Shown piece by piece: positions 29,703 through 61,680 of a stretch of DNA of 62,227 nt. The notes beneath the pieces are model-generated. The model was not told the origin of the DNA and did not search any database. It was given only the letters and a program-made list of their open reading frames with translations. Origin of the DNA: Desulfobacter sp. Its GTDB lineage: Bacteria; Desulfobacterota; Desulfobacteria; Desulfobacterales; Desulfobacteraceae. The stretch is taken from NCBI GenBank assembly GCA_030145005.1, contig JAQYWJ010000001.1:1-62227 (forward strand). The letters run 5' to 3'. Position 1 is the stretch's first letter, and each line of letters begins with the position of its first letter. The position numbers were made by a program, and so were the translations under genes.

Positions 29703-31571
29703 TCATGGCTCCATAAGCCTATATTCGATACGCAAGGGATAGACGGTGACTATACCCGGAAATGCTGATTTTAGGTGTAAGGATATGCTAACAAGTTTCT
29801 CTTCTGCATCTGGGCTTAGTTTACTGTTCAATGCATCTTTTAATTCAAAGTTGATGGTTTCGTTTTCCATGGTTATTGGCGGGATGGGGGTATTATCCAT
29901 TGCAAGTTCAAAGGGTGCTTGCGGTACCTGGCCATGGGTGGAAGCGCTAAAAAATGTGTAGTATGCTTCAACGCCCTTAACTTCGGTGATTTTCGTTAAA
30001 GGCGCTTTTTCCTGTGCTGCCTGTAGCACTTGGACCGGTTGACCCTCTCCGCTGCGGGTGAACCATAAGGCGGTCCCTTTTGCTGATTTTAATAATATCC
30101 AGTAAGATTGTGTTGCTAAGGGTATTGAATCACGCAAGGGTATGCGACTCCAGATACGTTCACCTAATATGTTTAATTGAATTCTTGCTTCTAAGACTTT
30201 CTTGCCGGAAGGTTGACCGTTCCAATCTTCGTGCAATTCAACCAATAGTTCGGTTTCTTTTTCCAGGTTCATCAGCCCCAGTGCCAGCCCATTGATTGTG
30301 ATTGCCTTGTCTGGTGAAACCTGTTGTGCTACCCAGCGATCTTCTGCAATGTTGATACCGGTCCGGTGTGATGCGGTGAGAGGTTGCATACTGCCTGCTG
30401 CATATGAAGGCTTCCCCCCTAAACTTGCTTCGGTTTTCAGGCCGGCCGCTATCACTTCAGCATTATTTGGAATTTCCATTGTGACAGTTTCCGTAGTCAA
30501 TGCGTTTCCGGGAAAACGAACAACGGTTTTTTCTTGAGGTGATACACCTTTGTAAGGTAATGAAGAGCGTTGACGAACCAAGGTATAATTGATTTTGAAC
30601 TGTGTTGCATTGAACACACACGGTGTGTCCGATTCGAGCACGAGATCAACATTAATGTTATCCGGTATGTCAGGTAGTTGGTTATTATCTTCGGCATCAT
30701 CAAAGATAGTATTAAATTGGTCATTTAAATAACGTGTTAACGCTTTGGCCAGTTCTTCGTTGGGATTTTTACCTATAGGCACCGTATCAGCTTGCTCGGC
30801 AATTTCGCCGGGAACATTCCAAAAATACTCAATAACCTCATGGGCGTCCCCTTCAGGGACCGGTGCCGCAATACCGATACGGGGCCCTGTGGGATTACTG
30901 TGTACAATCACGTCCAATACATGTTTCGTTTCCAGATGTGCGTACATTTTTGATTTGTCGATCACCTTCATGGCAAACTTCGTAGTAACAAAGTCTTCGA
31001 TCTCTTCGTTATTTCCCACTGTACAGGTCGGTTCCTCCGCAATTGCGTCTCCATCCACCCGATAAATTTCAATTTTATCAACATCCAGGCCCCTGTTGTC
31101 ATCCACTTGATAATCTGCATACGCATCCGCCATCGCAGCGTTCATCTTGACAGGCGGCTGTGGAGTACTGCCAACCGCTCGGATAGAATATTTTCGAAAA
31201 GTCATGCCGTATTGATGGTTGAATTTTTCTTCCCTGATCGCAGGTTCCGCCTCTGAATAATCCGCATGCACAATCTGTTTTATTCTTATTTTTTTGATTT
31301 TACGAGGTGCATCAAGACTTATAATAACGGTTCTATCAGGCGCACTGACTTTAGTCGCATGTATAGGACTTGCGGCGTCCAGTACATCATATTCTTGTGG
31401 TGTAAAGACGCCTTCTATTGCACTTGTTTCCGAGTTGACTTGTATACTGTCGGCATATCTACCTGTGTTAAACGACAAATTTATGACATGACGAAATAAT
31501 CTCACCGGTGGTGTTTCCACCAATGATGTCACTTTCCAGCTTGTTGCGGAATCGGCAAGTACTATATCCAT
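29703..31571 (-). CDS. Hypothetical beta-rich protein, last gene of CIS operon
   Basis: 622 aa ORF with GAGG ribosome-binding site, co-oriented with the cluster; no recognised motif. Confidence 0.75.
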   Translation of the reverse strand: MDIVLADSATSWKVTSLVETPPVRLFRHVINLSFNTGRYADSIQVNSETSAIEGVFTPQEYDVLDAASPIHATKVSAPDRTVIISLDAPRKIKKIRIKQIVHADYSEAEPAIREEKFNHQYGMTFRKYSIRAVGSTPQPPVKMNAAMADAYADYQVDDNRGLDVDKIEIYRVDGDAIAEEPTCTVGNNEEIEDFVTTKFAMKVIDKSKMYAHLETKHVLDVIVHSNPTGPRIGIAAPVPEGDAHEVIEYFWNVPGEIAEQADTVPIGKNPNEELAKALTRYLNDQFNTIFDDAEDNNQLPDIPDNINVDLVLESDTPCVFNATQFKINYTLVRQRSSLPYKGVSPQEKTVVRFPGNALTTETVTMEIPNNAEVIAAGLKTEASLGGKPSYAAGSMQPLTASHRTGINIAEDRWVAQQVSPDKAITINGLALGLMNLEKETELLVELHEDWNGQPSGKKVLEARIQLNILGERIWSRIPLRDSIPLATQSYWILLKSAKGTALWFTRSGEGQPVQVLQAAQEKAPLTKITEVKGVEAYYTFFSASTHGQVPQAPFELAMDNTPIPPITMENETINFELKDALNSKLSPDAEEKLVSISLHLKSAFPGIVTVYPLRIEYRLMEP

Positions 31572-31609
31572 ATGCCCTCATTGTTATTACAGTAAAAATG
31601 CGGTTGCGG

Positions 31610-33646
31610 TTAAGGGCGTCCTATTCCGGGTCCCGTCGGACCTTCACGTAATTGAAGATCCTCCTTAAATTTAGTGTAGTCGCGATTAAAGGCGCCTAAA
31701 TCCGTATTAAATTTTGTTACGTTATTATTAAACGATGAATAGTTGGTGCTGAAAATTTTGTATTGGGTTTTAAAGTCTGTCAGGTTATTGTCTGCCACAG
31801 CTAAATTCCTGCTAAGGTTGTCATTTTTTTCTATAAAATCATCATATTTCTGCGAAAAATCCGTGTACCTGGTATTAAATGTTCTAACGTTTGTCTCGAA
31901 AGCACCAAGGCGTTCATCCACTTGTGACACCCTGTCGTTAAAGTCGGCATAATCTTTATTGAAGCTGTTGCAGCGATTTGTGAATTGATTATAACGAGTC
32001 TGAAAATGCCCATAATTCGTATTAAATGTTTGTATGTCAGCTTGGAACGCCGCATTGGCTGAATTGAATTGTTCGACCTCAATTCGGAATTGATCTAAAT
32101 CAGCGTTAAATCGAGTCAAGTTTGTTTCGAATAGTGATAGATCAGCTTGAAGATGGGTAACAACACCATTGATTTGTCCAAGATCACTTTGAAACTGATA
32201 GTAGTCTACATTGAATTGACCGTAGTCGTTGGTAAATTGACCGTAATCGTTGTTGAATTGATCCAGCTGGTCCTGCACGTTCGTCACGACCTCCATAAAG
32301 GAGCCAATGTCCCCAAGTTCCCCGAATCTGGTATCGACAGTCTTCGTGATATCGGCGCGTACGTGTCCCATCACCGCGAGTGTACCCATCTGGCTGGTCG
32401 TGATATTTTTTGCAGCCAGATTAAGTGCGGGAAATAAAATCTTCCTGGTGTCAAATGTCAATCCTTCCAAGCCCGTATGGAGAAAATGCGCTACTTGTTG
32501 TTGAGCGACTTTTTCTGCGGCCGATTCCCCTATTAATCCAAATTCTCGTGAGGCATAGCTATACAATCGATTAACCATATTATCGAGCAACAGACCTTTA
32601 TCAGTCACTTGGTCTTTTAATTGATTAAAGTCTTCACATATCGTGCAACTCTCATTCAGTCGATTAATATAGACTTGATACCAAGGCTCCATCCAATCTT
32701 TAATGCGAACTTTAAGCACTGCGGTACTCTCTATCACATTATCGAACTTAACTTGTTCTTCGTCTTCGTGCAAATATGTCGTGACTAAAGCATTGAAGTA
32801 CGGCCAGGCAAAATTGGAAGTTGGACGATTAATTGCGGTGGATAAAGCTTCTTGCCGTGTACGAAAATATATATCCATAGCCTGCCGCAAATCCACGTTT
32901 CCTCTATCTTGATATTGCGATACCAGGCCATCAAGCGCTGCCGCCGCTTCATTAGGCGTTGCAGCTGCAGGATCAAGGCTACGCAATGCAAAATCCAATG
33001 CTAACTGCTGGGCATTTGTGAGCTGTTCGTCGGTTGGGCCAATAATTTTGATTTTTGCTTTTCCATTGATATCCGTCTGGGCGGTAATGACACTGCCATG
33101 CCGTTTTTCAAATCCGATTTGGGTTTCCAAAGTCCCCCAGCTTGTTGCAAACGTCAGCGGCAGATTTGCTTTTGGCCGTTTTTTTTTTATATCGCGCACT
33201 TCGACCAATACAATTGCCGTCTGCCCTATATAAAGGCCCGTCTGTGCCAACCGCATGGATATACGATACCGTACATCCATGGCTGCCTGCAGGGAACGCA
33301 CCATTTCTCTGAGTTCCCGCAACTCCTGTAAAATTGCTGCCGAAACTGCGCCACCTTCCTCTATTCTTTCAATACTGCGTCCTGTCAATACCGCGACGAT
33401 CTCCGTGAAGCGCTCCGGTCCTACATAAGGTGTATTGGCGACTTGCTGGATATCGGAAAACTCACCGCCCAGGGCTGCACGTCTGTTTAACAATCGTTGC
33501 GCGACACGCAAGCCCACATCCAGTTCACCTGGAATTTCGATGGTATCGGCAATTTCTTCAACAGACTGCGCACCGTTTAAAAATTCCAACACCTGCCGTA
33601 CTTCAGCAGCTGACAACGATTCCGGTTTTATATAGGACTTAAGCAT
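31610..33646 (-). CDS. CIS-associated protein: N-terminal HhH (ComEA-like), Ig-like domain, long Phe-heptad coiled coil
   Basis: DVGLRVAQRLLNRRAALGGEFSDIQQVANTPYVGPERF; central domain paralogous to 33661-35262; 29 heptad repeats. Confidence 0.75.
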   Translation of the reverse strand: MLKSYIKPESLSAAEVRQVLEFLNGAQSVEEIADTIEIPGELDVGLRVAQRLLNRRAALGGEFSDIQQVANTPYVGPERFTEIVAVLTGRSIERIEEGGAVSAAILQELRELREMVRSLQAAMDVRYRISMRLAQTGLYIGQTAIVLVEVRDIKKKRPKANLPLTFATSWGTLETQIGFEKRHGSVITAQTDINGKAKIKIIGPTDEQLTNAQQLALDFALRSLDPAAATPNEAAAALDGLVSQYQDRGNVDLRQAMDIYFRTRQEALSTAINRPTSNFAWPYFNALVTTYLHEDEEQVKFDNVIESTAVLKVRIKDWMEPWYQVYINRLNESCTICEDFNQLKDQVTDKGLLLDNMVNRLYSYASREFGLIGESAAEKVAQQQVAHFLHTGLEGLTFDTRKILFPALNLAAKNITTSQMGTLAVMGHVRADITKTVDTRFGELGDIGSFMEVVTNVQDQLDQFNNDYGQFTNDYGQFNVDYYQFQSDLGQINGVVTHLQADLSLFETNLTRFNADLDQFRIEVEQFNSANAAFQADIQTFNTNYGHFQTRYNQFTNRCNSFNKDYADFNDRVSQVDERLGAFETNVRTFNTRYTDFSQKYDDFIEKNDNLSRNLAVADNNLTDFKTQYKIFSTNYSSFNNNVTKFNTDLGAFNRDYTKFKEDLQLREGPTGPGIGRP
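32201..32262 (-). repeat. About 3 copies of a degenerate 21-bp coding tandem repeat
   Basis: Encodes (Q)FNNDYG-QFTNDYG-QFNVDYY. Confidence 0.7.
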
Positions 33647-33660
33647 AACAGATAATCATC

Positions 33661-35262
33661 TTAAGGCTGATTGATCTTGCCGAGAATTTCATTAACATGG
33701 GTTTGGATATTTGAAATATTACCCATGAGTGTTTCCTGATCCGGCACATTGAATTTAACAATATTACTCTCCATAAGCGACATGGTGCCCAATACATCCG
33801 TACCGATTTTAGCGGCACTTTCCTGCAATGTACTCATTGAACCTTTTAACTCGCTTACATCAGTATCTATATTATCAACAGCGGATAGTTGAATAGCTTG
33901 ATTCATGACCGTACCGAATCCGGGTTGTTGTGTACCTCCGTCCCCGGCTGCTTCGGAATATTTCATGACATTCCACGACTGCTGACTGCCGACACCATAC
34001 TGCACCGTTTCTTTGACCCGGCTCGACACCTCGGGATCGACAGGAATGTCAATCTGATCGACTGCCTTTCCAAAGGCATTCAATATCTTGTTTTTATGAA
34101 TAACGCCGACCGCTGACTGCACTTCATCCTCCAAAGTGATTTTAAAACCCTGTAACGTCACATAAATGTCCGGATCGACACGCGGTTCCAACACATCGAT
34201 AATGCCGTTGACTTCAGGCTCATCATATTCAAAATACCAATCGATCCATGGACCGACCCAATCTTTAAACGCAATTTGAATCGCACTGGCAGCTGATTTG
34301 GTATCGGGCGTGGTTGGGTCACCATCTTCTTTAGCGATGGCCATTACCGTAGACCGGTAATATTTCCAATTACCGCCGAAACCGACATCTCCCTGCCAGT
34401 GCCCCGCCTGCATTCCCACGTAATACGTGTCAGCAAAACGATGCATGAATCGCATACTGCTGCGCTGATACACATTCCTCATCTCGGTATAAGCACCCGC
34501 AGCAGTTTCACCACTGGCGTTGGGCGCATCGTTCAAGGTCTCCATTACGGTTTTACCGCCGGCCTGCACCACGGTATCCAGGAAACCTTCAACTTGTATT
34601 TCGTCTTCCTCACTCATTTCCTGCTGATGCTCTGAACTCACCCGCACTTTAGCTATACCTGATGAATCGGTACGCACTGAAATGGAATGACCGTCGATGC
34701 CGCTTCGTGTGGTAAATCCATCAAAGGGTTTTAACCTGCCCCAACTCGTGATGAAGTCCACCCATGGCCGGTTGGGGGGGATATCGCCATTCAGCGTTTT
34801 TACCGTAGCGGTGAGAACAGCACGTTCGCCCAGGTTGTAGTTCTCCTTTGTGGTCTCCAGCGTAACAACGTACTGGTCGCGCAAAGGTTCTATGGAATCT
34901 TTGAAATCATTGTAATCATCGGTCATGAAGGTTTCGAACTCTGCCTGTTCAACCACATCGGTTTCTTCCAGCTTGATAACCCGGCCGGATAGTGTATCTA
35001 TATCCGACGTATCGCCCGCTTCACCGACAAATCCCTCCAGGGATTCGATTCTGCCGCGCAACGTATAATCGGCACCGCTTTCAAAGCCAACGAAACTTTC
35101 AAGTCCGTCAACCCGGGTATAAACGGACGATAATTCATCTGCTATGGTTTTTACACTGGAGACAAGCGCGTTCCACTCTTCATGTTTAATAAGATCGCCT
35201 TGTATTTTTTCAGTAAAGGACCCCAATTCCGTAATTGTGTCCTGCAAATCCTGAAAGCTCAT
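33661..35262 (-). CDS. CIS-associated fibre/accessory-like protein (coiled coil + Ig-like)
   Basis: GDLIKHEEWNALV N-terminal motif, fibritin-like LRGRIESLE/LSGRVIKLE repeats, and FITSWG...RTDSSGIAKV domain; follows baseplate I. Confidence 0.65.
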   Translation of the reverse strand: MSFQDLQDTITELGSFTEKIQGDLIKHEEWNALVSSVKTIADELSSVYTRVDGLESFVGFESGADYTLRGRIESLEGFVGEAGDTSDIDTLSGRVIKLEETDVVEQAEFETFMTDDYNDFKDSIEPLRDQYVVTLETTKENYNLGERAVLTATVKTLNGDIPPNRPWVDFITSWGRLKPFDGFTTRSGIDGHSISVRTDSSGIAKVRVSSEHQQEMSEEDEIQVEGFLDTVVQAGGKTVMETLNDAPNASGETAAGAYTEMRNVYQRSSMRFMHRFADTYYVGMQAGHWQGDVGFGGNWKYYRSTVMAIAKEDGDPTTPDTKSAASAIQIAFKDWVGPWIDWYFEYDEPEVNGIIDVLEPRVDPDIYVTLQGFKITLEDEVQSAVGVIHKNKILNAFGKAVDQIDIPVDPEVSSRVKETVQYGVGSQQSWNVMKYSEAAGDGGTQQPGFGTVMNQAIQLSAVDNIDTDVSELKGSMSTLQESAAKIGTDVLGTMSLMESNIVKFNVPDQETLMGNISNIQTHVNEILGKINQP

Positions 35263-35264: not shown

Positions 35265-37805
35265 TTATTCTCCTCGTACTATTTGCTCTTCCACCGCAAG
35301 CTTTACGTTAACCCCTGCAGGCCGTACTTTTTTGATGCCCTGCCACACGCGGTCGATAATGGCGGGATGAACAGTTTCATCCGCCGTTATTGTCTGTAAT
35401 CGGACAATCGCGGTAAACGTGCGTCTTCCCGACCATTCCAGCCAGACTTTCGCGGCGGGGGTGTAGGGGAACACGGTGCTGTCAAAGATTTGCTCCGGCG
35501 GTTCGGGTTCCGGGTCATTTTCCCCGTAACGCCCGGGATAAGGTGCGTCCTGGTCGCGGGGCGGGAATAAACGGTCTTCACGTGTCCCCCCTGGCCGATC
35601 TACCGATACAGGTTCCAGGTCGGGAGGTGGTAATAGACGACCCTCACGTGTCCACCATGGCCGGCTTACCGATACAGGCATGGTCTCCGTTTCCAAAGAA
35701 AGGTAGCGCCAGGTGGACTCTCCCACGGGAATGCGCGGCACCGCGGGTAAGCCGCCATCGACAATGCGTTCGTTTGTCGGTTTGACGCGCATACGCAGAT
35801 CGTTAATGGCGACAGGGCCGGAGCTCTTAAATGCTTCACTCTCCCATGTCCCTGACTCTGCGGCGATGGAGTCTGTCCATTGCACCACGTGTACAGGGTT
35901 TTCATTTTCACTGCGGGGACTGTCAGCATAAACAGTCCACTGGCGGGTAGTGCGATCGAAATATTGCCAACTCGATGAAGCGGGATGAAAGCGCCAGAAA
36001 TCCCTTGGTGCAGCGTCTTCGGTGAAATATACACTGTCAGCCCGACCTTGTGATACCCACCGTTGACTACCCGTTTGATACTGGGCAATATCGCGGCCAT
36101 CAAAACGAAACAAGCCGCGACTGGTGCAAAACCAGACCAGCCCCCGTGCGTCTTCCCGGATAGCATGCACTTCGCCATCGGCAAGGTCGGGATAGGCCTC
36201 CAACAGTGTTTTATAGGTCAGACCGTGTTCCGGACGTGCACGATAGCGGGCAAAGCCCTGTTGTGTGCCGATCCATAAGGAAGCATCGGGGCCAACATGA
36301 ATGCTCGTAACCGGCGGCAGATAAACTTCGTTCGCTTGCGGCAATTCACCCAGGATAAGAGGATTCCAGTCCTTAATCTGGTCGGATTCTTCTTCACCGC
36401 GATACCAATACCAATCTTCCGTGCCGGTTTGAAATTGAAATAACCCTGACTCACCGCCAAAATACATCACCCCATGCGGGTCTTGATGCAATGCGTAGAT
36501 TTCCGTGCCTGTCAAATCAGAGTCAGTCACACTATCGTCAGGGTTCAGCCACACAGCACCATTATTTGTGGCAACCCACACGGTGCCGTCTTTATCCTTC
36601 AAAATATCGTAAACCGCTTGCCCGGCCAGCGGTGCCACCGGTGTGGCTTCGAAAGGATCTCCATCGTCAGGAAAGAGGGGCATGCGCAGCAAGCTGTCGG
36701 CTGTGCCGATTAACAATGCCTGATCTTGTTCGAACAGGCAGTGAATAATGCCTAAACCAAGGCTACCCAACACCTGCGTCCAACGGCTGCCATCATAACG
36801 CCATAGTTCGCCGTTGCCGTTACTATGAGTGGCAACCCATAAAAAACGGTCTTGTGATTGATGCATCGTGGTCACCACGCCGGCCGGGGCACCGGCTGCC
36901 GTATCCCACGGTCCGGCTGCGGTGGGATCGGCGTCTGTGGTACCGGTAGGATCCGATCGTGCAGCCAGCACGGCCTTTCCCGAACCTAACCATGACTGGT
37001 AGGCAGGCTGCAATCGCAGTACATTTCCGTCGGCGATGGTGCCCTGGTAGCCAATGCCTGAACGGGGAAACTCACTGCCCGTGTGAAAGAGTTCCACTAC
37101 CGGATTTTCCGTGGCGTCCTGTTGATCCGGAATGGTGTTCACGCCTTCAATATACAAGGTCAGCGGCGCGGCTTCCAGGCCATCATTGACAAAACTCCAG
37201 CGCATCAATGGTCCTATCACATGCAGCTGCTGCCCATCTTTGCCCAACGGCGCGCCCCGTGCTTTAAACGTTCTTCTTACCGTCACCAGGGGTGCAAACT
37301 CTTCGATGGAAAAGGACCGTTCCCGTTGAATACGCGGCACCTCGGGCACTGGCGGCAATTCCGCTTCTACGATGGTACGCAATGCGTTCACTGTGCCAAG
37401 GCCATTGCGGTATAACTCAACATAGAGCCCCAGGCGCTCGCGGTATTCTTCCACCTTTTCTCTCAGCGGAAGGGGTTCCCGCCAGGGCGGCAATGCCATC
37501 AGCGCCCCCAGGCGCGCCAAATCAAATAAATAGGGAAATGCCTTGATGGTTTCGCGGTCAGCAGAATCATGAGCTTTTAAAAGATCAAGTTCCTGCTGCT
37601 TGCGATCGAGATTTAAGTACGCATCATATAACGCACTGTCGGCATAATTATACCAATGCGCCTGCATGACGTCATTCATATCCCGGCTTACATCATCCAG
37701 TATCTTACCCACTGATCTCAGGAATTCCGACACAAGACCGGTATCGTAAATTTCCGGCCGGTATAAGGACGGTAAATGCGATTTGAGTTGGTTGTATATA
37801 GGCAT
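35265..37805 (-). CDS. Baseplate wedge protein (P2 gpI/T4 gp7-like) with inserted beta-propeller
   Basis: N-terminal LPSLYRP...LYRNGLGTVNALR and C-terminal KKVRPAGV; internal DGTVWVATNNG, LWIGTQQG and VWFCTSRG propeller blades. Confidence 0.75.
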   Translation of the reverse strand: MPIYNQLKSHLPSLYRPEIYDTGLVSEFLRSVGKILDDVSRDMNDVMQAHWYNYADSALYDAYLNLDRKQQELDLLKAHDSADRETIKAFPYLFDLARLGALMALPPWREPLPLREKVEEYRERLGLYVELYRNGLGTVNALRTIVEAELPPVPEVPRIQRERSFSIEEFAPLVTVRRTFKARGAPLGKDGQQLHVIGPLMRWSFVNDGLEAAPLTLYIEGVNTIPDQQDATENPVVELFHTGSEFPRSGIGYQGTIADGNVLRLQPAYQSWLGSGKAVLAARSDPTGTTDADPTAAGPWDTAAGAPAGVVTTMHQSQDRFLWVATHSNGNGELWRYDGSRWTQVLGSLGLGIIHCLFEQDQALLIGTADSLLRMPLFPDDGDPFEATPVAPLAGQAVYDILKDKDGTVWVATNNGAVWLNPDDSVTDSDLTGTEIYALHQDPHGVMYFGGESGLFQFQTGTEDWYWYRGEEESDQIKDWNPLILGELPQANEVYLPPVTSIHVGPDASLWIGTQQGFARYRARPEHGLTYKTLLEAYPDLADGEVHAIREDARGLVWFCTSRGLFRFDGRDIAQYQTGSQRWVSQGRADSVYFTEDAAPRDFWRFHPASSSWQYFDRTTRQWTVYADSPRSENENPVHVVQWTDSIAAESGTWESEAFKSSGPVAINDLRMRVKPTNERIVDGGLPAVPRIPVGESTWRYLSLETETMPVSVSRPWWTREGRLLPPPDLEPVSVDRPGGTREDRLFPPRDQDAPYPGRYGENDPEPEPPEQIFDSTVFPYTPAAKVWLEWSGRRTFTAIVRLQTITADETVHPAIIDRVWQGIKKVRPAGVNVKLAVEEQIVRGE

Positions 37806-39612: not shown

Positions 39613-40068
39613 CTATAGTTCCAATGTTATAGGTCCGATAGTAACCGTTTGCGTTTCGCCCACAGGTAATAGCTGAAGACCGACATCGACACTCGAGTGT
39701 CTTTCCACTGCAGGGGTTACCGTTACATCCACGATCTCTTCTATGCGTGGTTCTCTTTGCAACGTTTCCAAAATATAAAGCCTGACTAAATTGCGCTTGG
39801 TTTCCGTATTCACTTGACCAATCAGTTCATGCAAACGTGATCCGTATTGCGGATGGCCCAATGGTGTTAACTCGCCCCGTGGGGTAAGCAAGCGCATAAT
39901 GATGGCCTGGGCGAGATTGTCGCGGCCACTGGTAACGGCTAAATCCAAGATCAACCCTTTGCCGCCCGGCCCCAACCGGCGTGTGGAACTTACGTTATAG
40001 ACCGGCCGTAATTCACGATGCATCAGATCCAAGCGCAGGTCTGTTAATAAATGTTGATCTTGAGCCAT
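39613..40068 (-). CDS. GPW/gp25 family baseplate wedge (sheath initiator)
   Basis: NLAQAIIMRLLTPRGEL..HPQYGSRLHELIG and EPRI; start placed at MAQDQ (40068) behind GAGG. Confidence 0.9.
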   Translation of the reverse strand: MAQDQHLLTDLRLDLMHRELRPVYNVSSTRRLGPGGKGLILDLAVTSGRDNLAQAIIMRLLTPRGELTPLGHPQYGSRLHELIGQVNTETKRNLVRLYILETLQREPRIEEIVDVTVTPAVERHSSVDVGLQLLPVGETQTVTIGPITLEL

Positions 40069-40072
40069 ACCA

Positions 40073-53123: not shown

Positions 53124-56100
53124 TAAACAGATACTCCTGCACTTGCACTGCCGCCACCACCTACCGCACTATTTGCTGCGCCGAGCATATGATCGAATGC
53201 TTTTTCCGTGCGTTGCAAGCCGTCGAAGAATTCCGTTTCCAGTTCATTCAGCTTGTCGATAATAGGTTGCAATATGACAGTAAAGTCGATCTCTCCCAGT
53301 TTGTCTTCTAGCGCAGCCCAGGCCTGATCCATTGGTTCGCCGAGTATTGTCTTGGGATTGACCTTATCCACCAATCCGTTGATATCATCAAAAATGATCT
53401 GAATACTGTCTAGTAACTCAGACGGTTTGGTCTCATTCAGATGTTCACCAACATCAGCATGTACCACATCAAGTTGATCAATGACTCTTGATGGATCAAG
53501 CGCACTAATCATGGCGCGCACATCAGCAACAGCGTTATCAATATCGGTGGCAAGAAAATCAATCCTGATCCGGTCAACAATTCCTTTTATTTGATTGACC
53601 GTATCTTTCACTTCGTTAATCGCATCATCAAGATCAAGACCATCAATCAGCGCCAGGACCGCATCATAGGTTTCATCCAGCTCCGCAGAGATATCTTCGG
53701 GGCGGACGGGAATAACCTTTTCCTTTAAAGTCTCAAAGCGCGCATCCAGCTCTTCAAGGAAACGAGCCGGGTTAGCCAGGCGCATAATTCGTTTGAATGA
53801 TTCCTCGTTCAATAATTCCCTGGCGAACGGGGGCAGCATGTCCATCAGTCGGGTTTGCAATTCGTTATAGACGTCGACCAGGCCGCGCACATCGACATTG
53901 GTTTTCAGATTTTCAAGGGCGGTGATCAGGTTATTGTAGGTATTCACTATATCGTCTAGGAACAGTACCGGGTCTGCTTCTACAACCAGTCCCATCAGGT
54001 CCTGGTCGCCTGTGCCCTGTACCGCCAGACGGAGGTCAAAGTATTCGCCTTTAAGCTGGTTATAACCGGCAGAGACATTAACCGCCCTGACTGCAGCAAT
54101 AAGCTGGTCAATTTGATTATGCAGTGTTTGTGTTAATGTTTCCGGTTGCAGCTGTTCAAGCACCTGTAAGGGAGCCTGAAACATCTGATGTAATGCATTA
54201 ACTGTTTCCTGCTGGATATCTTCCAGAAAGCCCAGCAACGGCCCGGCCAGTTCCACCACAGGTTGGAAAACGACTGAAGGCTTGAAACGATCCAGCTCCT
54301 GTTCGATCTGGACAAATTCATCGGCAACAGGCGCCAGAATCTCTGATGGCCGGATATCACGCAGGTCATCCTGTGCTTTTGAGATTGCCGCCAGTAATTC
54401 ATCGAATACTTCGGTGACATTAAATTCGCTGACCAAGCCTTTAAGTTCATTTAGCGGATCATTGATCAGGGCTATAATTTCACTACCCTTTATTTCATCA
54501 AATATTGAAACAAAATCGGCAAATTTGTCTATCGCCGGGCTTAGAAGGACGCTGGGTTTGACGTCGTCGAAGGGATCAAGCACATATTTCTTATGCGCCT
54601 TGTCCAGCGGCGCCAGCATTGATTCAACGCTTAATGCGCCAAGTGATTCCTCAATTTTGTCAAATGCGGCAAACAAGCCGCTCAAAAGTTGCGAGGGACT
54701 GATTTCATCCAGTATCGACAGCGCCTCCTCATAGCGTTGCTGTAACTCCTCAATACCGGACTGCGGGATGGCCTTGATATTTTGAAACTGCTCACTTAAT
54801 GGTGATTTAACGGTACCGGTAAAATCAATATGAATGACCACTTCCAGCGCCAGTTTCAGAGCTTCACGGAGTATGTCGTTTAAGGAACCGGAATCAATTG
54901 ACTTTAGTTTCTCAGTGTTTTCATCTAACACATCAACGACCGGATCAATAATAATATCAAAATCAATCGGGATTAACTGTTCAATGATTTCATCAACCTT
55001 GGTTTTTAAATCTTCCAGCAACTGCGGCATATTGAGGCTATCAATATAGATCGTAAAGTTATTGATACCGGTAAGGGCCTGATCTCTATAGGAGCCAAGA
55101 GTGCCGTCAACTTCATCTAATAAAGCGGATACTTGTAAGATGGCCTGTTCGAGCCGCCCCTTGAGTGATTCAAGTTCTCCCTTGAGGCTAAAACTATCGG
55201 GGGCGGATGCATCTCCGCTGATGCTGTTCCTCATTGTCTCAAAAATTTCAGTAAGGCTGTCCTCAAAATGAAAACGAAAGGAACCATCGGGCTGGAATTC
55301 ACCGACACCTGAGGCCAATTCACGATACTGTGTTTGAATATCGTCAAAGTAGCTTTGGATTTGGCCGACAAAATCGGTAACACCCTGCTCAGCTGTGTAG
55401 GTGGCTTCGGCAACCGGGGTAAGCTGTTCATTCAGCACATCACCAATAGAAGGCAGATCAACTGTTTCGATTGTTTCCTGTAATGTATTAAAAAAGCCGA
55501 GCACTTCATCACGAACAAATGACAAGTCAATGTTCTCAATGGCTTCATCCAGCTTATCGAACAGGGCATTAAACGGGTCATTGATTTTCTGGACTTCATT
55601 AATGTTAACCCGTAGCGCGTTATTCAATTGTTTACGTAGATAATTTTCCAATGCATTAGCTTGAAATAGAGGATGTGCAGTGACCCCGCGTATATTTGAA
55701 AGCACCGGCCTAATATGTCTGTTCAGGTCGCGTAGTCCTCTTGTTATGGGAACTATGGATGTTCTGAATGTGGCATAGTCAGTATTAATTTGTGTTATAG
55801 AAGTGCTGTATAAACCGGTTAGCGTCGTTACAGCACTTGCCACCGGTTCCAATGCTGCCTGGAGACTATCCAAGATGGGAAATTCCTGGGTAAATCTAAT
55901 TATTGTTTGTACTTTTTCAAAGCCAAAAAGTTTCAGGGTTCTATCCAGGGCGCGCTGGTATATTTCGACTATGATATCTGCTGCATCGGATGAATCCGCG
56001 ACAGCCTCAATCAAGGGGGTAATCTCTGTAGAGAGACTCTGGATTGATGCAATCCATGCGGTGATGTCTTCAGCCTCTTTACCACCGAATTGGTTCAGGA

Positions 56101-56551
56101 GTGAGACAATTTGTTCTGTTAACGAGCTGATGACACCATTGCGATCCTCGGGGATGTTGTCAGAGATTTGCCTGATCGTGGTAATGATATTTTGTATGCC
56201 GGTAATTGCATCTCCAGAGAAAATATCCCTGGCATCCCTGAAATTATTGCCTATCTGTTGCAAATTTTCCGTCGGTATTAACTCGGTTACGGTCTTTAAA
56301 GCCGGATAAAGGTTGCTGACAGTAGAAACCGTATCAGTTAAATCACTGCTGAGTAAGCTGGAGAAATTGGCTGATATACTGTTCTCCACATCGTCAAATA
56401 ATTGCTGGGGAGGCTGCGCTAATAATCCTGCTGCACCAGCATAACCGGAGCCGGGAACGTCACCCTCCTGCTCTACTCCCAATAAGTCAATGGCAGTAGT
56501 CATAATGGTTTGCAAACTTTGCAAATTCTGAGTCAATGAAGCTTCCGGCAT
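53123..56551 (-). CDS. Tape-measure-like alpha-helical repeat protein
   Basis: 1142 aa, acidic and amphipathic-helical, with recurring [ILV]xPSx[LV]LxP units; lies between the tube genes and the hub. Confidence 0.55.
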   Translation of the reverse strand: MPEASLTQNLQSLQTIMTTAIDLLGVEQEGDVPGSGYAGAAGLLAQPPQQLFDDVENSISANFSSLLSSDLTDTVSTVSNLYPALKTVTELIPTENLQQIGNNFRDARDIFSGDAITGIQNIITTIRQISDNIPEDRNGVISSLTEQIVSLLNQFGGKEAEDITAWIASIQSLSTEITPLIEAVADSSDAADIIVEIYQRALDRTLKLFGFEKVQTIIRFTQEFPILDSLQAALEPVASAVTTLTGLYSTSITQINTDYATFRTSIVPITRGLRDLNRHIRPVLSNIRGVTAHPLFQANALENYLRKQLNNALRVNINEVQKINDPFNALFDKLDEAIENIDLSFVRDEVLGFFNTLQETIETVDLPSIGDVLNEQLTPVAEATYTAEQGVTDFVGQIQSYFDDIQTQYRELASGVGEFQPDGSFRFHFEDSLTEIFETMRNSISGDASAPDSFSLKGELESLKGRLEQAILQVSALLDEVDGTLGSYRDQALTGINNFTIYIDSLNMPQLLEDLKTKVDEIIEQLIPIDFDIIIDPVVDVLDENTEKLKSIDSGSLNDILREALKLALEVVIHIDFTGTVKSPLSEQFQNIKAIPQSGIEELQQRYEEALSILDEISPSQLLSGLFAAFDKIEESLGALSVESMLAPLDKAHKKYVLDPFDDVKPSVLLSPAIDKFADFVSIFDEIKGSEIIALINDPLNELKGLVSEFNVTEVFDELLAAISKAQDDLRDIRPSEILAPVADEFVQIEQELDRFKPSVVFQPVVELAGPLLGFLEDIQQETVNALHQMFQAPLQVLEQLQPETLTQTLHNQIDQLIAAVRAVNVSAGYNQLKGEYFDLRLAVQGTGDQDLMGLVVEADPVLFLDDIVNTYNNLITALENLKTNVDVRGLVDVYNELQTRLMDMLPPFARELLNEESFKRIMRLANPARFLEELDARFETLKEKVIPVRPEDISAELDETYDAVLALIDGLDLDDAINEVKDTVNQIKGIVDRIRIDFLATDIDNAVADVRAMISALDPSRVIDQLDVVHADVGEHLNETKPSELLDSIQIIFDDINGLVDKVNPKTILGEPMDQAWAALEDKLGEIDFTVILQPIIDKLNELETEFFDGLQRTEKAFDHMLGAANSAVGGGGSASAGVSV

Positions 56552-56569: not shown

Positions 56570-57169
56570 CTAATCATTCGTACCAAAAATATTCTGCAAA
56601 GGAGTCAACGCATCATCCAGGCCTGACATGGCGCTTGTCACGCCATCCAGAGCGGAGGTCAAATCATCTGTCGGGTCTGACAAATCGGGTACGCTGCCTA
56701 TTGAATCAATCACGTCCAGGGCTCCGGTTACTGAGTCGATAAAATTTCCGGCTTGGTCCAACAAATCCGTATCAATCCCACCCAATGGGTCTGGTGGTGG
56801 AGGCGGCGGCGGGCTTTCTTTTAATATGATGAAATAATCCATTTGATCCGGCTTCAAGCCGTTTTCTTCAAACCGCAGTGTTTCAATAATCACGTACTGC
56901 ACTTCAGTAGCCGTAACGATGTCACCGAGGAACGTCACGGGTTCTCCTTCGCGGAATTTGCCACGGAGTTCTTCTAAAAATTCGTTGCGTGTTTCATCTC
57001 CGTACAAACTACCGCATATCGCCACACGCGTTGGTCCGGTATTCATATCTTGAAACAGGCTGCCAACACGGCCCGGAATATCAAGCTCAACAAAATTTCT
57101 TTTTTCCAGTGATTGTATGAATTGGATACGTGGAATTTCCCAATCACCTAACACGGGTTTTACATTCAT
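56570..57169 (-). CDS. Tube initiator (Mu gpN DNA-circularisation N-terminal / gpU-like)
   Basis: FVELDIPGRVGSLFQDMNTGPTRVAICG...YFIILKE tube-fold pattern, followed by a poly-Pro linker. Confidence 0.65.
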   Translation of the reverse strand: MNVKPVLGDWEIPRIQFIQSLEKRNFVELDIPGRVGSLFQDMNTGPTRVAICGSLYGDETRNEFLEELRGKFREGEPVTFLGDIVTATEVQYVIIETLRFEENGLKPDQMDYFIILKESPPPPPPPDPLGGIDTDLLDQAGNFIDSVTGALDVIDSIGSVPDLSDPTDDLTSALDGVTSAMSGLDDALTPLQNIFGTND

Positions 57170-58497
57170 GACAAATCTACCCCATGACGCTTGGCTTGTT
57201 CCACAAGCACCTCATTAACTAAGGTGGTAAGCGCATCTTTATCCAGCGTATTCACCGCCATAGAGATAGCAAAATCTGCGCTTGTAGCGTTGCTAAGCTG
57301 CCTTGATGGAGTATCCCCTTTTTGCAAATGAAATTTCATACTCTGTTTACTGTGTGCGTCTTCTATATTTAAACGACTGTAATTGCCGCCCTGTTCATCA
57401 CTTTGAAGCGTATTTGAATCAATTTGCATCTTTGACTTTACACTCTTATCCGTTTGTGACAGCAGCAATTCCTCCGCCATCATGCCAATTTGGGCAAGAC
57501 TGTTTGATAAGGTTTGGCGGCTATTGATAGTTAAATCATTGCCGGCGACTTGACTGATGTTGGACTTCGCATCTTTTTCATACGTTCCGCCGGCACCGCT
57601 ATAGCTGCTGCTTGCCGGTGTATTATCCCGTTGCCCTTGCAGATGGCTTGCCGTATCTGAGTGCTTAAGCGATCGGCCCTTCAGTTCAGCAGGCCACGGC
57701 GCCATGGCTACGGAAGACGCGTCGGTCGATATAGTACTTGCCTTATTGAATGCGTTATCAGTACGTTCATGGAAACGCCGGTAATTACTATCCACATTAG
57801 CTTTCTTTTCCTGTTTAGCAGACGTTTCTTCATCCAGAATCCGCTTCACCAGGTTATCAACGACAACCAATGTATTTTCTAAAGCATCACCACTCTGTAA
57901 AGGGCTTTGATTTGTATTGGCTGCACTTGACAACGGTTCTATAGGGGCGTTAATAGAAGTTGCGACGTTCAAATTATCAAACCCTGACGCTTGTCGTACG
58001 GATTTATTATTGTGTTTCGTCGGTAGTTCTAACGTTGTATCTCGCACTGTGAACCGTTGCACACGCGAAACCGATGAAGCAGAATCGTTCATCGCAACAA
58101 CGTTGCCATTATTGCCTTTGCAGGGCGGACTTCCGTTGGTTGACTGACTCCGATGGTCCTGCTTATTGCGCTTTGCCAGCGAATTCGTTTGTGGCTCTCC
58201 GTCTTTTGGCTGTCTATCGTGATACCGCTCAGAATCGTTGTTGCGGTTACGCCGATGCGTTTTATCTGTCGCCGGATTAGTCCCTGTTTCAATATTCGTG
58301 TCGGACTGTAACCCATCAAAGGGCGAAAAATCCACTAGTGGCAAACTATCATTTAAATCCTCACATAGCCGTTCAACCAAGATTATGTTTTCCAAACCAC
58401 TGGGAAGCGGATGAGACAATGCATCAACCACATCTCGAAAAGACTTAACCGCCTGCCGCAAATTCTCTGATTGGTCACTATTTTTTTTCGACGCCAT
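57166..58497 (-). CDS. Low-complexity, probably disordered CIS protein
   Basis: 443 aa, rich in S/N/Q/D, with short helical termini; GAGGGG ribosome-binding site; overlaps both neighbours. Confidence 0.65.
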   Translation of the reverse strand: MASKKNSDQSENLRQAVKSFRDVVDALSHPLPSGLENIILVERLCEDLNDSLPLVDFSPFDGLQSDTNIETGTNPATDKTHRRNRNNDSERYHDRQPKDGEPQTNSLAKRNKQDHRSQSTNGSPPCKGNNGNVVAMNDSASSVSRVQRFTVRDTTLELPTKHNNKSVRQASGFDNLNVATSINAPIEPLSSAANTNQSPLQSGDALENTLVVVDNLVKRILDEETSAKQEKKANVDSNYRRFHERTDNAFNKASTISTDASSVAMAPWPAELKGRSLKHSDTASHLQGQRDNTPASSSYSGAGGTYEKDAKSNISQVAGNDLTINSRQTLSNSLAQIGMMAEELLLSQTDKSVKSKMQIDSNTLQSDEQGGNYSRLNIEDAHSKQSMKFHLQKGDTPSRQLSNATSADFAISMAVNTLDKDALTTLVNEVLVEQAKRHGVDLS

Positions 58498-58963
58498 GTT
58501 CCCCTCGCAACATTTGCAGATTGAGTAACACTTGCCCCAACGTCAGCTCATTAACTTGCTGTGGTGTCCAACCAAACTCTTTGGCTAACACAAAGGCTGC
58601 TTTGATTAACGGCGCATCTACTGCTTCATTGATTTGCTCTTGGCTAGCGGTTATACCACTGATCTCGTTAACATGTTGCAATAAGTACTGGACTAACCCA
58701 ATGTGCATACCGTTGACCTGTGCTACGGTCATTTGCGGTTCCACCAGCGCACGCTGCACCATTAATGTCGCCATTAGAGAATCACTTTCTTTGGCGGCAC
58801 GGGAAATGAGCTGCAGATCGTGCACTGTGAGTGGACGTAATCGCACGGTATTTTTGGTGTCGGCATCATCATGTTGCTGTTCGGCCGGATGTAAGATATC
58901 GGGAGGAATCTCAATCTCGAAATCCAGGGTGCCGCCTGCCAATAATTCTTCACCGTTTAACAT
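58478..58963 (-). CDS. Tail assembly chaperone-like protein
   Basis: VRLRPLTVHDL, ALVEPQMT...VNEISG and C-terminal EFGWTPQQVNELTL (gpE'-like); directly follows the tube gene. Confidence 0.7.
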   Translation of the reverse strand: MLNGEELLAGGTLDFEIEIPPDILHPAEQQHDDADTKNTVRLRPLTVHDLQLISRAAKESDSLMATLMVQRALVEPQMTVAQVNGMHIGLVQYLLQHVNEISGITASQEQINEAVDAPLIKAAFVLAKEFGWTPQQVNELTLGQVLLNLQMLRGEHGVEKK

Positions 58964-59457
58964 TACGCTGCATCCGCCACTGTCATATACAAGGCTTGAA
59001 AGCTAATTGATTCCATGAGGAAGTCATCTTCCGGCATGTTGTAATTCCAACTATCCAACTTAACACCATGCAATGTTACTGTGTTATTTACATCAGGGTT
59101 TGCCGGATTTTCCACCATTAACGTCACGTTAAAACTGGGTTGCGCCCAACTTGTGGCGGGACGGCTGGACGCCGCTTCGCCTAGTAACAGTTTTAACATT
59201 GCACCATTGATGTACGCCCGCCCGATGGTACCGCGTATGGTGACATTACCAGGCCGCAATTCCGTGGCATAACGTTGACCTATCTCATGGAACGCTTTGA
59301 CATCCGATTGTACTTCCACCGCGACATTCTGCACCCGGCCTACGCTAATCATGTCGTATTCGGTAAGGACCTCTTGGGCTTTCTCACCTTCAGTGCCTTC
59401 CGGGGTGGAAAGTGTTATTGAACCATCTGCGCCAGTGAATACATTTATGTTTGCCAT
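58963..59457 (-). CDS. Tail tube protein
   Basis: 164 aa directly after the sheath; VGRVQNV...HEIG...GNVTIRGTI...VTLHGVKLDSWN...ESISFQAL. Confidence 0.85.
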   Translation of the reverse strand: MANINVFTGADGSITLSTPEGTEGEKAQEVLTEYDMISVGRVQNVAVEVQSDVKAFHEIGQRYATELRPGNVTIRGTIGRAYINGAMLKLLLGEAASSRPATSWAQPSFNVTLMVENPANPDVNNTVTLHGVKLDSWNYNMPEDDFLMESISFQALYMTVADAA

Positions 59458-59470: not shown

Positions 59471-60547
59471 TTATGAAAGAGCCAATGTTACGCGGATGTA
59501 ATCAATGCTGAATGTGGGCTGCATAGCGACGTTGACAATAGCCCGCCCTGCAATTTCATCCGGACGTGTTGCGGTCACTTCGACTGAATAACGCGTCAGC
59601 GATTCATCTTGAACCATGGTGGTGAGAAAACCATCAATAGCACCCTGTAATGCTGCGCGCACGCGTTGGTTGTTTAAACGTCCGATAAAAGGATTACTCA
59701 CTTGTCGGATGCCGGCTTTAGCAAAATCGGTAATACGTCGCGTGGTAATTTGGCTAAACGGACCATTTTCAGAGGCTTGCGTCGTTAATCCCCGAACCAC
59801 ACGAATACCCCGGCGATCTTCCAATGCAGCGACACCACCTGTGAGTAAATCTTTGGTTTCTCCATAGGAAAATTTTTGTTCTAATTTAGTCACACCGGAA
59901 AGAACTTTATTGGTAGGACTTGTTTGCACTGCTAAGCTACTTATTAAGCCTGCTAATGCTGCCGCCGTATAGCGGCCATTTAACACAACGTCCGCCTCCC
60001 CGGCTGCGTCATAGGCATAGATACCCGGCGCGGTCATAATCACCCGTTTATTGGACGTCACCTGTCCGGTAATATCTGATGCTGCGGATTGGTCTGAGCC
60101 GATCACTGCAATCACGTCTTTGCCATTGCCCTCCGCACTGTCAACAATACTCCCTAACACCGCTTTTGCTTGATCTGTGGTCAATTCCGGCGCTACTAAT
60201 ATATTGACATTTTCTTTAATGACTTCATCAAATCCATCAGAAAAATCAGCTTGCGATGCCCCGGCTGCCAGCGAATGAGCATAAATCGTTCTCGCACCGT
60301 TTCTAAATAGCAGTTCGATGCTACGCGTTAGGTTTAACGTTTCGGCACTATAAGCATCGTACATTCCTAAAGTGGTTCGGGCCGTATCCCAATCCGATAG
60401 ATTGTGGGTTTCGCCATTCCCTTCACCGGCGGTTCCCACAATACCGATGTTTCCCGCTGAAATTCCGCCGGCACTAATCAGGGCTTCTGCTTGCACCCGT
60501 ATATACGTGCCTGGAATAATTTGTTCTGCAAATTGGTCTTCTGCCAT
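59471..60547 (-). CDS. Contractile tail sheath protein
   Basis: PGTYI, GIVGTA, AAALAG, IRVVRGLTT, ITTRRITD, FIGRLNN and VAMQPTFSIDYIRVT. Confidence 0.93.
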   Translation of the reverse strand: MAEDQFAEQIIPGTYIRVQAEALISAGGISAGNIGIVGTAGEGNGETHNLSDWDTARTTLGMYDAYSAETLNLTRSIELLFRNGARTIYAHSLAAGASQADFSDGFDEVIKENVNILVAPELTTDQAKAVLGSIVDSAEGNGKDVIAVIGSDQSAASDITGQVTSNKRVIMTAPGIYAYDAAGEADVVLNGRYTAAALAGLISSLAVQTSPTNKVLSGVTKLEQKFSYGETKDLLTGGVAALEDRRGIRVVRGLTTQASENGPFSQITTRRITDFAKAGIRQVSNPFIGRLNNQRVRAALQGAIDGFLTTMVQDESLTRYSVEVTATRPDEIAGRAIVNVAMQPTFSIDYIRVTLALS

Positions 60548-60582
60548 GGACTCATCCTCCTGTTTAGTGCTGATTTACCTCG

Positions 60583-61680
60583 CTAATTTTGAAAATGAAC
60601 CAACTTAATGCGATAAAAATATGCTTGATTATTATTATGACACGCAAATCCAATTCTTCCCGCTTCCGTAATAGAACTATCTTCCCCTTGCAACGCAAAA
60701 TTATTGTCGATGAATAAAGTAAACTTGGAATCTTTCACAATGAGTTTTACTTGATAATGTACATCCATATCGTAACCTTGGGTATCATCCAACCCAGGCG
60801 TATCAAGAAAGCTGAATACACCGTCTACTTTTTTGCCCATTAATCGATAGTTGTGACGCGAGGACATTAAAAAGTAATAAAAATTTTCTGTATTCCGGAA
60901 ACGAAAAACAAAACCGATACCATCGGAATCCCCGGACTCCAAGTCAGCACTCAGAATAAAATTCTGCACTAACGGCCGTTGAGCCGTCTGCTTAAGCAGT
61001 AGATACGTGCCGGCTTTATCCGGGGTGGGCAACAGGTCGCCGCCATGGATATCAGAGAGCTGTTCAATACGAAATTCATCGCCATTATACGTCCAGTTAG
61101 AACTCCCTCCATGCGTGACCAGAGGATCATCAGCAACATCAAACAAGTCCAAAGCGTTGTCATCAAAACCGGTATTAATGAGAAACCTGGCCCCGTCTTC
61201 ACTAAGGTCCAAATCGTAATCAAGGGGAATCTCGTCCATCACCCCTTCTGCAACATCAGGCAGTTTCACATATTCATAAAGCACGGAAAAGTTAACATCC
61301 TGCGCCGCAACCATATTACTTCCATGGCTTGTCGTTGTTACCGGACCAAGGTCATTGAGTACGATACGATAAAGCCCGTTTTGAGAAAGCGTCTGACGAT
61401 CCTGGGTTAGAAAAATCCCGGTGAGATTGTCAACAATATTACTAAGCTGATCTTCATCCGCAGCTTTTGCTGTTATTACCGCAACCGTCTTGATGCGCCT
61501 CCCATAAATGGCACCTTTGGGATCCTCGTTTACGGCGATAAATCCGCCCAGGCCGATGGGAGTAATCCGTATGGCAGAAAATACCAGTCTTGGTTCATGG
61601 GCAGAATCAGTTACCGGGGGCATCATCCCCTCCAGCAAACTCCTTAGGCTAACCAAGGCTTCATTACTTATGAGATCCAT
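60583..61680 (-). CDS. Putative tail terminator/cap protein with C-terminal ConA/thrombospondin-C-like domain
   Basis: First gene before the sheath; C-terminal DSDGIGFVFRFRNTENFYYF...GRIGF lectin-fold pattern. The cap role is inferred from position. Confidence 0.55.
   Translation of the reverse strand: MDLISNEALVSLRSLLEGMMPPVTDSAHEPRLVFSAIRITPIGLGGFIAVNEDPKGAIYGRRIKTVAVITAKAADEDQLSNIVDNLTGIFLTQDRQTLSQNGLYRIVLNDLGPVTTTSHGSNMVAAQDVNFSVLYEYVKLPDVAEGVMDEIPLDYDLDLSEDGARFLINTGFDDNALDLFDVADDPLVTHGGSSNWTYNGDEFRIEQLSDIHGGDLLPTPDKAGTYLLLKQTAQRPLVQNFILSADLESGDSDGIGFVFRFRNTENFYYFLMSSRHNYRLMGKKVDGVFSFLDTPGLDDTQGYDMDVHYQVKLIVKDSKFTLFIDNNFALQGEDSSITEAGRIGFACHNNNQAYFYRIKLVHFQN

Follow-up and report, generated by a model that had tools for sequence, protein, structure and literature searches.

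The window analysed here is a stretch of 62,227 nucleotides from Desulfobacter sp. (GenBank assembly GCA_030145005.1, contig JAQYWJ010000001.1, positions 1 to 62,227), of which positions 29703..61680 on the minus strand hold 18 intact, uninterrupted open reading frames (ORFs) that together form the gene set of a headless contractile tail. The genes are tightly packed, with 16 of the 17 intergenic gaps between -32 and +41 bp and the remaining one at 113 bp, and the GC content of the cluster is 48.3%, compared to 48.0% for the host assembly. A first-pass annotation had described a full contractile tail of 18 coupled genes without a head in a deltaproteobacterium, which we can confirm for the genes as well as for the host; a genome titled Desulfobacterales, of the same order as the host, has a 95% identical sheath. 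The genes and predicted domains are as follows:

g1, 60583..61680, minus strand: 365-aa protein, likely the tube or sheath cap, judged by position
g2, 59471..60547, minus strand: single contractile sheath protein, 358 aa (PF04984, E 7.7e-14; PF17482; phrog_279)
g3, 58963..59457, minus strand: tail tube, 164 aa (PF18906, weak)
g4, 58478..58963, minus strand: likely tail assembly chaperone (position after the tube; PF10109, E 0.002, below cut-off)
g5, 57166..58497, minus strand: low-complexity protein of variable length, likely an extended tape measure, by its position between chaperone and g6
g6, 56570..57169, minus strand: likely tube initiator with a proline linker and a short helical tail (position, faint matches)
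g7, 53123..56551, minus strand: core protein of 1142 aa, helical throughout, with proline-spaced repeats of 23 residues; predicted to be a cargo adaptor, sleeve or channel
g8, 48078..53123, minus strand: 1681-aa protein with NHL beta-propellers (NHL, E 3.4e-82) and an HExxH...E zinc-peptidase motif at residue 1290
g9, 42359..48046, minus strand: 1895-aa polymorphic cargo with a conserved N-terminal 130-280 aa and a locus-specific C-terminus
g9 residues 960-1215, 44402..45169, minus strand: mobile domain, predicted to be LD-transpeptidase/Tlde1-like
g9 residues 1609-1883, 42398..43222, minus strand: predicted TIM-barrel glycoside hydrolase
g10, 41214..42317, minus strand: baseplate hub, gp27-like (phrog_52, phrog_4930)
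g11, 40582..41217, minus strand: spike with OB fold (PF04717, E 4e-8)
g12, 40073..40468, minus strand: PAAR tip (PF05488, E 9e-12)
g13, 39613..40104, minus strand: gp25-like sheath initiator (PF04965, PF10934)
g14, 37808..39610, minus strand: baseplate J, extended at N- and C-terminus (PF04865, E 7e-16)
g15, 35265..37805, minus strand: likely wedge protein of the baseplate I type, into which a beta-propeller is inserted (Reg_prop, E 2e-18; propeller structure matches)
g16, 33661..35262, minus strand: core protein with coiled-coil ends, likely a fibre or crown part, paralogue of g17
g17, 31610..33646, minus strand: paralogue of g16 with a long coiled coil and an N-terminal motif that we take to be helix-hairpin-helix-like
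g18, 29703..31571, minus strand: most diverged core gene, likely the receptor-binding tip (last position)

Scans against Pfam, PHROG and NCBIfam recovered one sheath, a hub, an OB-fold spike, a PAAR protein, gp25 and baseplate J, with weak matches for tube and chaperone, and gave zero family matches for g1, g5, g6, g9 and g18. Among the 18 window proteins they found no ATPase, and neither a Walker A motif nor a hydrophobic 19-mer of at least 1.9, the mark of a membrane-spanning part, is present in any of them; Pfam and NCBIfam matches to TssJLM, TssK, TssB/C or ClpV are absent from the 18 ORFs and from the window flank. The single compact sheath, the single tube, the separate hub and spike, the PAAR tip and the missing ATPase of the earlier annotation therefore stand, as do its roughly 11 kb of enzymatic cargo amid the structural genes, where g8 and g9 span 10.8 kb (42359-53123) and contain predicted enzyme domains. 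Because of these encoded parts, it is near certain that the locus makes a contractile particle of some kind. Two of the traits by which the annotation had set the locus apart lose that role, since the diffocin sheath is just as compact (354 aa) and since dbeCIS subtypes IIa-IIc likewise have hub and spike as separate proteins, according to the accessible part of PMC6899500.

The cluster belongs to a widespread family and is no oddity of its host. Of 8000 candidates scored, a sheath search recovered 1329 proteins, and among the 120 listed almost every one is 354-390 aa long; sheath relatives were found at 462 loci of the GTDB collection. By their record titles, the best 80 of these 462 represent Desulfobacterota, Pseudomonadota, Chloroflexota, Acidobacteriota, cyanobacteria, Gemmatimonadota, Actinomycetota, Nitrospirota, Deinococcota, Planctomycetota and KSB3. 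Synteny, which the annotation had suggested checking, is kept in all 33 loci studied in full (that of the window and 32 others, from about 10 phyla by record title): g1, sheath, tube, chaperone, g5, g6 and g7 are followed by the slot, and this by hub, spike, PAAR, gp25, J and g15-g18, where "slot" denotes the position of g8 and g9. One locus is cut at a contig end; a spike label was assigned in 29 loci and a PAAR label in 30, the others apparently being masked by overlapping ORF calls. None of the 33 loci contains a Walker A pattern, and no shared ATPase lies within 8 kb, though an unlinked one may exist. The flanks hold unrelated host genes: among the flank ORFs scanned (76 of 170, all of at least 140 aa), no capsid, terminase, portal or holin family was found, and a holin-endolysin cassette is absent from these as well as from the window flank. 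Close kin carry the family patchily, with strong matches in 0 of 24 genomes of the same genus, one of 12 others of the same family and one of 24 others of the same order (60 genomes). Cultured carriers exist in Teredinibacter turnerae T7901, Hahella ganghwensis and Thauera mechernichensis, so that the family can be tested now. In IMG/VR, four contigs match at 42-44% and form a sister group; two, both filed as viral, lack a slot gene and have a gene of 180-189 aa in place of PAAR (L149:10065-10607, L150:10736-11305).

The swappable slot lies in the middle of the operon, between g7 and the hub. Across the 33 loci we distinguish type A (21 loci, 23 proteins), type B (seven, including the window), subtilases (three), an RHS protein accompanied by a small HEAT gene (one) and one unassigned occupant; the g8/g9-type cargo of the earlier annotation is thus real at the window but a minority type in the family. 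Type A proteins have a helical N-terminus and, in 20 of 23, both of the C-terminal M23-like zinc motifs, H..D and HxH, with a long H-to-D spacing that we take to be that of LasA-type enzymes. In type B, the g8 propellers and HExxH...E motif are present in 7/7 copies, which can be aligned end to end, making g8 the constant partner of a g9-type cargo. g9 itself is modular: six of seven other copies match at the N-terminus only, while one also has residues 1-1215 in common, and C-termini elsewhere contain PG_binding_1, Amidase_3 (weak), NHL or CarboxypepD_reg (weak) domains.

Two domains of g9 point to enzymatic activity. Residues 960-1215 have His1124, Ser1135 and Cys1138 as invariant columns in 44 sequences, arranged as H-x10-SAGC and resembling the published LD-transpeptidase motif HX14-17(S/T)HGCh, as given in the accessible text of PMC9638812; the domain occurs in nearly all of the best 150 matches, mostly at their C-terminus. 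An ESM Atlas search with it returned only unnamed matches at 0.80, and fold searches with a 936-aa g9 model listed no LD-transpeptidase chain, an absence that does not exclude one; the matches of this model are to the barrel domain. For that barrel (residues 1609-1883), VIA Z scores of 10-10.8 over 143-207 residues, at a root-mean-square deviation of 3-5 A, leave GH156, Cwp19, chitinase, dispersin and the CTP1L endolysin tied, with Foldseek E values of at least 3e-3; a DLE motif is shared by 6/6 aligned copies. Residues ~1490-1545, which we had presumed to be an M15-like peptidase, have an HMFGDAAD motif conserved in 6/6 copies, but no Pfam match and a low predicted local distance difference test score (pLDDT), and the assignment was not adopted. 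About 140 proteins (P0129-P0273), mostly of 500-900 aa, end in a g9-type His/Cys domain and make up an unnamed effector-like family, mostly without Pfam matches (PG_binding_1 in 4 of 45 scanned).

Several relatives hold more than one cargo gene or an unusual one. In a type B locus of a Chloroflexia genome (L091:13398-17705), g18 is followed by an Amidase_2 gene and two further g9-type genes, one with the His/Cys domain of the window, resembling spare cargo cassettes. A Gemmatimonadales locus (L144:1-16287) carries three cargo genes of type A and, ahead of g6, an additional g7 region that seems to be split, and the slot protein at L139:1153-8952 (2599 aa) joins a subtilase to a molybdopterin oxidoreductase-like domain. 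The genome of the latter also has two separate loci with gp19-type tubes, one of them ~80 kb away.

Directly upstream of the slot, g7 is 1106-1206 aa long in 61 of 62 full copies and amphipathic, with a proline period of 23 residues. Its model is all helical (pLDDT 77, predicted template-modelling score 0.40), and it matches the tape-measure family phrog_305 with an E of 1.7e-16. A fold assignment was abandoned: Foldseek template-modelling scores did not exceed 0.06, and VIA (Z up to 11.8) returned only generic helix bundles, which for helical models amount to noise. The subtype of g7 goes with the type of slot, as judged from the 59 copies whose contigs reach far enough downstream. The window type is followed by g8 in 12/12 copies, while the other 47 are followed by type A (38), the hub (2), a propeller-subtilase (1) or something else (6). 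In a quick tree, type B lies on separate sheath branches, and together with the g7-slot pairing this makes it look as if g7 and slot were exchanged as a unit. The mismatch between sheath identity and slot type suggests the same, as the other g7 type can accompany sheaths 72-74% identical to that of the window, and type B occurs with some at 53-65%.

How does this family relate to known contractile systems? With E values of 3.5e-8 to 6e-3, the sheath profile is about equidistant from the solved sheaths, among them those of Afp3, Pvc3, R-pyocin and diffocin. The best-scoring named sheaths are those of the Herelleviridae (SP10, phage 812 type) and of the haloarchaeal HF1/phiH tails, with 67 bits for SP10 and 66 for HF1 and J scores of 84-112 bits, at 22-32% identity over partial length; unlike these phages, the family has no head or packaging genes, and its distal genes differ. 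Of the PBSX/XkdK-like sheath proposed in the annotation, the motifs IRVVRGLTT and FIGRLNN are indeed located in g2, whose best PHROG, phrog_279 (E 3.9e-37), matches only B. subtilis among 14 control genomes, but the profile favours SP10 and HF1 over phiCD119 XkdK (10.5 bits), and XkdK-type sheaths in general reach just 10-26 bits. Judged by its profile, J appears nearest to Firmicutes and haloarchaeal myoviruses and to diffocin (phage ORF62, 9euf, 1e-17; diffocin CD1371, 6e-14), not to Afp11 (0.18); it found no match in two gp19-tube loci of one genome, a comparison made without the dbeCIS sequence set. In a quick 28-row sheath tree with few, long-branched references, 13 family rows lie on one side of a branch (SH-aLRT 97), apart from two gp19-tube sheaths of extracellular contractile injection systems (eCIS) and from P2 FI; the family and its sister group join with a support of 31, deeper order is unsettled, and the eCIS label of rows L125 and L162 is unconfirmed. 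Within the limits of this tree, the nesting in a described eCIS lineage that the annotation had named as a refutation was not found.

Diffocin, phiCD119 and PBSX have the same order of sheath, tube, chaperone, tape, initiator, hub, spike, gp25, J, I and fibre, a related J, a sheath of similar size and a tube to which g3 is weakly similar (phiCD119 XkdM, hhalign probability 36%). They differ in having a lysis cassette or head genes, whereas the family adds PAAR, g7 and a polymorphic slot and lives mostly in Gram-negative phyla. R-type tailocins, including diffocin, likewise have a headless contractile tail with one sheath, one tube and no ATPase. For g1 as a terminator and g6 as Mu gpN, hidden Markov model and hhalign comparisons with Mu, P2, HF1, phiH, SP10 and phiCD119 proteins were negative, so that the Mu-gpN-like initiator of the annotation is unproven, leaving position and faint matches in 27 homologues (DUF6046 in 10, Dit_like in two, DNA_circ_N in one). 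The hub g10, by contrast to these negatives, matches that of Mu with an E of 1.6e-10 (27-protein set).

Resemblance to eCIS lineage II (IIa-IIc) is considerable, comprising the headless cluster without lysis genes, PAAR, split hub and spike, in-operon cargo, a wide, patchy spread and, as shared markers, a Phage_sheath_1 sheath, gp25 and a VgrG-like hub and spike; some eCIS toxins are antibacterial, one being a peptidoglycan hydrolase. However, the family lacks a gp19-type tube, DUF4255, AAA+ and DUF4157, its J appears unlike Afp11, its cargo sits mid-operon, and g7 and g16-g18 are extra core genes. PF06841 (Phage_T4_gp19, the Afp1/5 tube and a dbeCIS screening marker) matches 0 of 27 tubes at E <= 0.05, PF18906 matching 16 of them, and DUF4255, the Afp16 terminator marker, 0 of 26 g1 homologues at the same threshold, in two of which Tail_completion_gp17 matches weakly. 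A gp19-type tube is absent from the host assembly and from three of four other carriers, and in the fourth it belongs to separate loci. The T6SS (type VI secretion system) is similar in its PAAR tip, its wall-directed enzyme motifs and the constant-N, variable-C layout of its cargo effectors (Tlde1, M23, amidase, RHS), yet the locus has none of TssJLM, TssK, TssB/C and ClpV and instead encodes J and a tape-measure-like gene. The cytoplasmic systems of Streptomyces and Roseiflexus share the lack of lysis genes and a tape-like gene of low complexity ahead of the initiator. Their sheaths are distant, however, they have an ATPase and gp19 tubes, and the window locus has no membrane adaptor. By its gene content, the family would thus work like an extracellular contractile injector, yet it is outside eCIS and phage-like protein translocation structures (PLTS) by three tested markers, and outside tailocins, PBSX and T6SS as these are defined. 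The distinct subfamily proposed in the annotation gains from the separate sheath branch, from a J that appears far from Afp11 and from the failing eCIS markers, but has to be recast as a widespread group.

Both eCIS catalogues screen on Afp-type markers that are absent here, and a large family therefore seems to have been missed, even in genomes that were screened. According to the accessible text of PMC6899500, dbeCIS requires homologues of afp1/5 and afp11. In the portion of PMC8213781 available, eCIStem scores Hahella ganghwensis DSM 17046, a species with a family sheath, as 0, and its T7901 operon is another locus, whose sheath has 571 aa and which also contains gp19 tubes and an AAA gene. 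T. turnerae T7901 also encodes a 360-aa family sheath (ACR14730.1). PLTS always occur with an AAA+ ATPase, as stated in PMC4122934, which also lists Tmz1t_1864-1884 of Thauera sp. MZ1T, a genome scored 0 by eCIStem (PMC8213781); this cluster may belong to the family, so that one member may have been listed once, unrecognised. The accessible part of the PhageTAILor preprint places new families outside its own scope, and our literature search, which most subscription papers lay outside, found no description of the family.

We give about even odds (0.5) to the reading that the locus encodes a free, single-use antibacterial injector whose wall-lytic payload rides at the baseplate through g7. In this proposal, the tube protein g3 would grow on g6 and the hub along g5, g2 would sheathe it and g1 would cap it. 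g5 is likely the ruler, because of its position and its conserved C-terminal motif, EQAxRHGVDLS, with g7 as the alternative. g16-g18 would bind the target and trigger contraction, and the slot protein would be tethered by g7 to the baseplate or spike via its own conserved N-terminus, that is, through the helical N-terminus in type A and through g8 and the g9 N-terminus in type B. Slot proteins have 700-2600 aa with propellers and are too big to fit folded into a lumen of ~4 nm, which is why we place them outside the tube, where no loading ATPase would be needed. The spike would then put the enzyme into the wall of the target, and lysis of the producer through unlinked genes would be the likely route of release. 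Target, loading and release are all inferred. More tentatively, and with rather less than even confidence, we propose that the family is a separately domesticated class of injectors, drawn from a Firmicutes/haloarchaeal-type myovirus tail and not from Afp/PVC stock, present in at least ten phyla, and loading very large wall-lytic effectors without an ATPase via an exchangeable cassette, in which g7 is a cargo carrier or trans-envelope sleeve matched to the cargo N-terminus.

A number of points weigh against the antibacterial injector. Particle, activity and binding are predictions from the genes, the locus has neither release genes nor, at the window, an immunity gene, and wall hydrolases, which ordinary tails also carry as lysins, could attack the producer. 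That slot enzymes cut walls is a prediction from motifs and folds only, below curated thresholds: Pfam M23 was below cut-off in type A (2 of 13 scanned), whose profile was built from 19 of the proteins later counted with it; the g9 domain 960-1215 lacks the second His of the LD-transpeptidase motif, as far as the accessible text of PMC9638812 defines it, and has no Pfam or PDB match; the g9 barrel fits chitinases as well as lysins; and subtilase cargo says nothing about a bacterial target. As kin share labels, the match between g7 and slot is not independent evidence of binding, and the loci were chosen, 31 from the best 80 of 462 for their long contigs and one from the search for relatives.

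The strongest alternative, though we consider it unlikely, is a tailocin that kills by puncture and depolarisation, with the slot enzyme as a path-clearing tail lysin and g7 as a tape-measure-derived channel across the target envelope. The gene order equals the tail order of phiCD119 and Mu, J and sheath are nearest to Firmicutes/haloarchaeal myoviruses and diffocin, an ATPase is missing, g7 is amphipathic, of constant length and matched to a tape-measure PHROG, and wall hydrolases occur in the same tail region of SP10 and phiCD119. What this reading does not accommodate is the lack of a lysis cassette, the constant-N, swapped-C layout of g9, which with its spare copies is that of polymorphic effectors, the RHS and subtilase cargo, which are no lysins, and a g7 without a transmembrane-grade stretch.

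Somewhat less probable still is a cytoplasmic, self-acting system, as in Streptomyces and as proposed for Roseiflexus, that fires into its own envelope, its hydrolases serving programmed lysis or wall remodelling. A filamentous or biofilm way of life, which many of the carriers have, would suit such a role, as would the lack of release genes. Systems of this kind exist, according to the accessible parts of PMC12998442, which ties the Roseiflexus system to those of Streptomyces, and PMC10020575. Yet few sheaths match more weakly than those of Streptomyces (E 0.04-0.06), which are also missing from the profile match list, the locus contains no membrane adaptor, and the fast-diverging g18 and swapped cargo suit outside targets. 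An injector against eukaryotes (protists, fungi or animal hosts), with chitinase-like, protease and RHS payloads, would explain the match of the g9 barrel to chitinases, the subtilase and RHS cargo, the lectin-like g1 tail and the occurrence in the shipworm symbiont T. turnerae, but we regard it as improbable, as the commonest cargo is M23-like, with amidase and peptidoglycan-binding domains, and the window host comes from sediment samples. That the cluster is what remains of a prophage, either a tail in decay or the tail half left by a split, is largely refuted already and very improbable: despite a phage-like order, a contig that ends 547 bp upstream, a 74% complete assembly and an integrase within 3.5 kb of two of 32 loci, all 18 ORFs are intact, no head gene adjoins any checked locus, none of 50,697 phage records covers at least 80% of sheath or J, and the four IMG/VR matches contain the same headless cluster to their contig ends.

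If the antibacterial injector holds true, it shows how kilo-residue cargo can be transported by a free injector that has no ATPase, and it adds a bacteria-directed weapon to sediment and sludge communities. New wall-lytic enzyme domains would also come from it, as would four core proteins without known structure (g7 and g16-g18).

The remaining core genes are conserved to different degrees. The N-terminal ~155 aa of g1 are present in every copy, while the C-terminal, lectin-like beta-sandwich, similar to levanase chains (E 8e-4), is optional; g1 was found in 32 of 33 loci, with one locus lacking a match. The length of g5 has a median of 371 aa (69 automatic picks, some of them mis-called). g6 and g16 are present in 33/33 loci, and profile searches of the PDB with g6 and the tube gave nothing useful. 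The gpI role of g15 follows from position, with an hhalign probability to P2 I of 5% only. g16, at ~21% identity to g17, has coiled-coil matches only in Pfam and none in the ESM Atlas; g17 also gave coiled-coil matches, and the pattern of its N-terminal motif is found in 20 of 32 copies. g18 identities are 16-34%, apart from the three closest relatives.

Around the cluster, the 29.5 kb downstream contain housekeeping genes, including lipid A and shikimate genes, and no head genes. The 547 bp upstream are all that precedes the contig end, and three close relatives have host genes there. Neither terminase (PF03237) nor portal (PF04860) was found in the host assembly, which is 74% complete; head or terminase genes next to the locus, the other refutation named in the annotation, were thus absent from flank, relatives' flanks and assembly alike. 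The host assembly contains no second copy of the cluster.

A sigma-54-like -24/-12 site (61759-61774, minus strand) lies 94 bp upstream of g1, and sigma-54 activator genes flank four loci. The motif is found upstream of 5 of 70 loci, compared to a mean of 2.7 and a maximum of 8 in shuffled sequences, and sigma-54 control was dropped as unenriched. Near-identical DNA is present in sediment samples, and two sediment metatranscriptomes from one study contain the locus as contigs, one with 30/30 bins in both halves and the other with 23 and 28 of 30; as the flanks are covered too and DNA may have been present, we do not take this as expression. A hairpin-forming host repeat of ~95 bp lies between spike and PAAR (40487-40582), with 80 BLAST matches on 63 contigs, and contigs from two runs lack this copy. 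A related copy upstream of g1 (61965-62045) has 26 matches on 24 contigs; Rfam gave 0 matches over 29000-62227, the hairpin repeats included. Elsewhere in the host assembly (G000), contig C251 encodes at 3586-3714 a 43-aa, 44% match to the spike OB fold, perhaps part of a VgrG-like gene.

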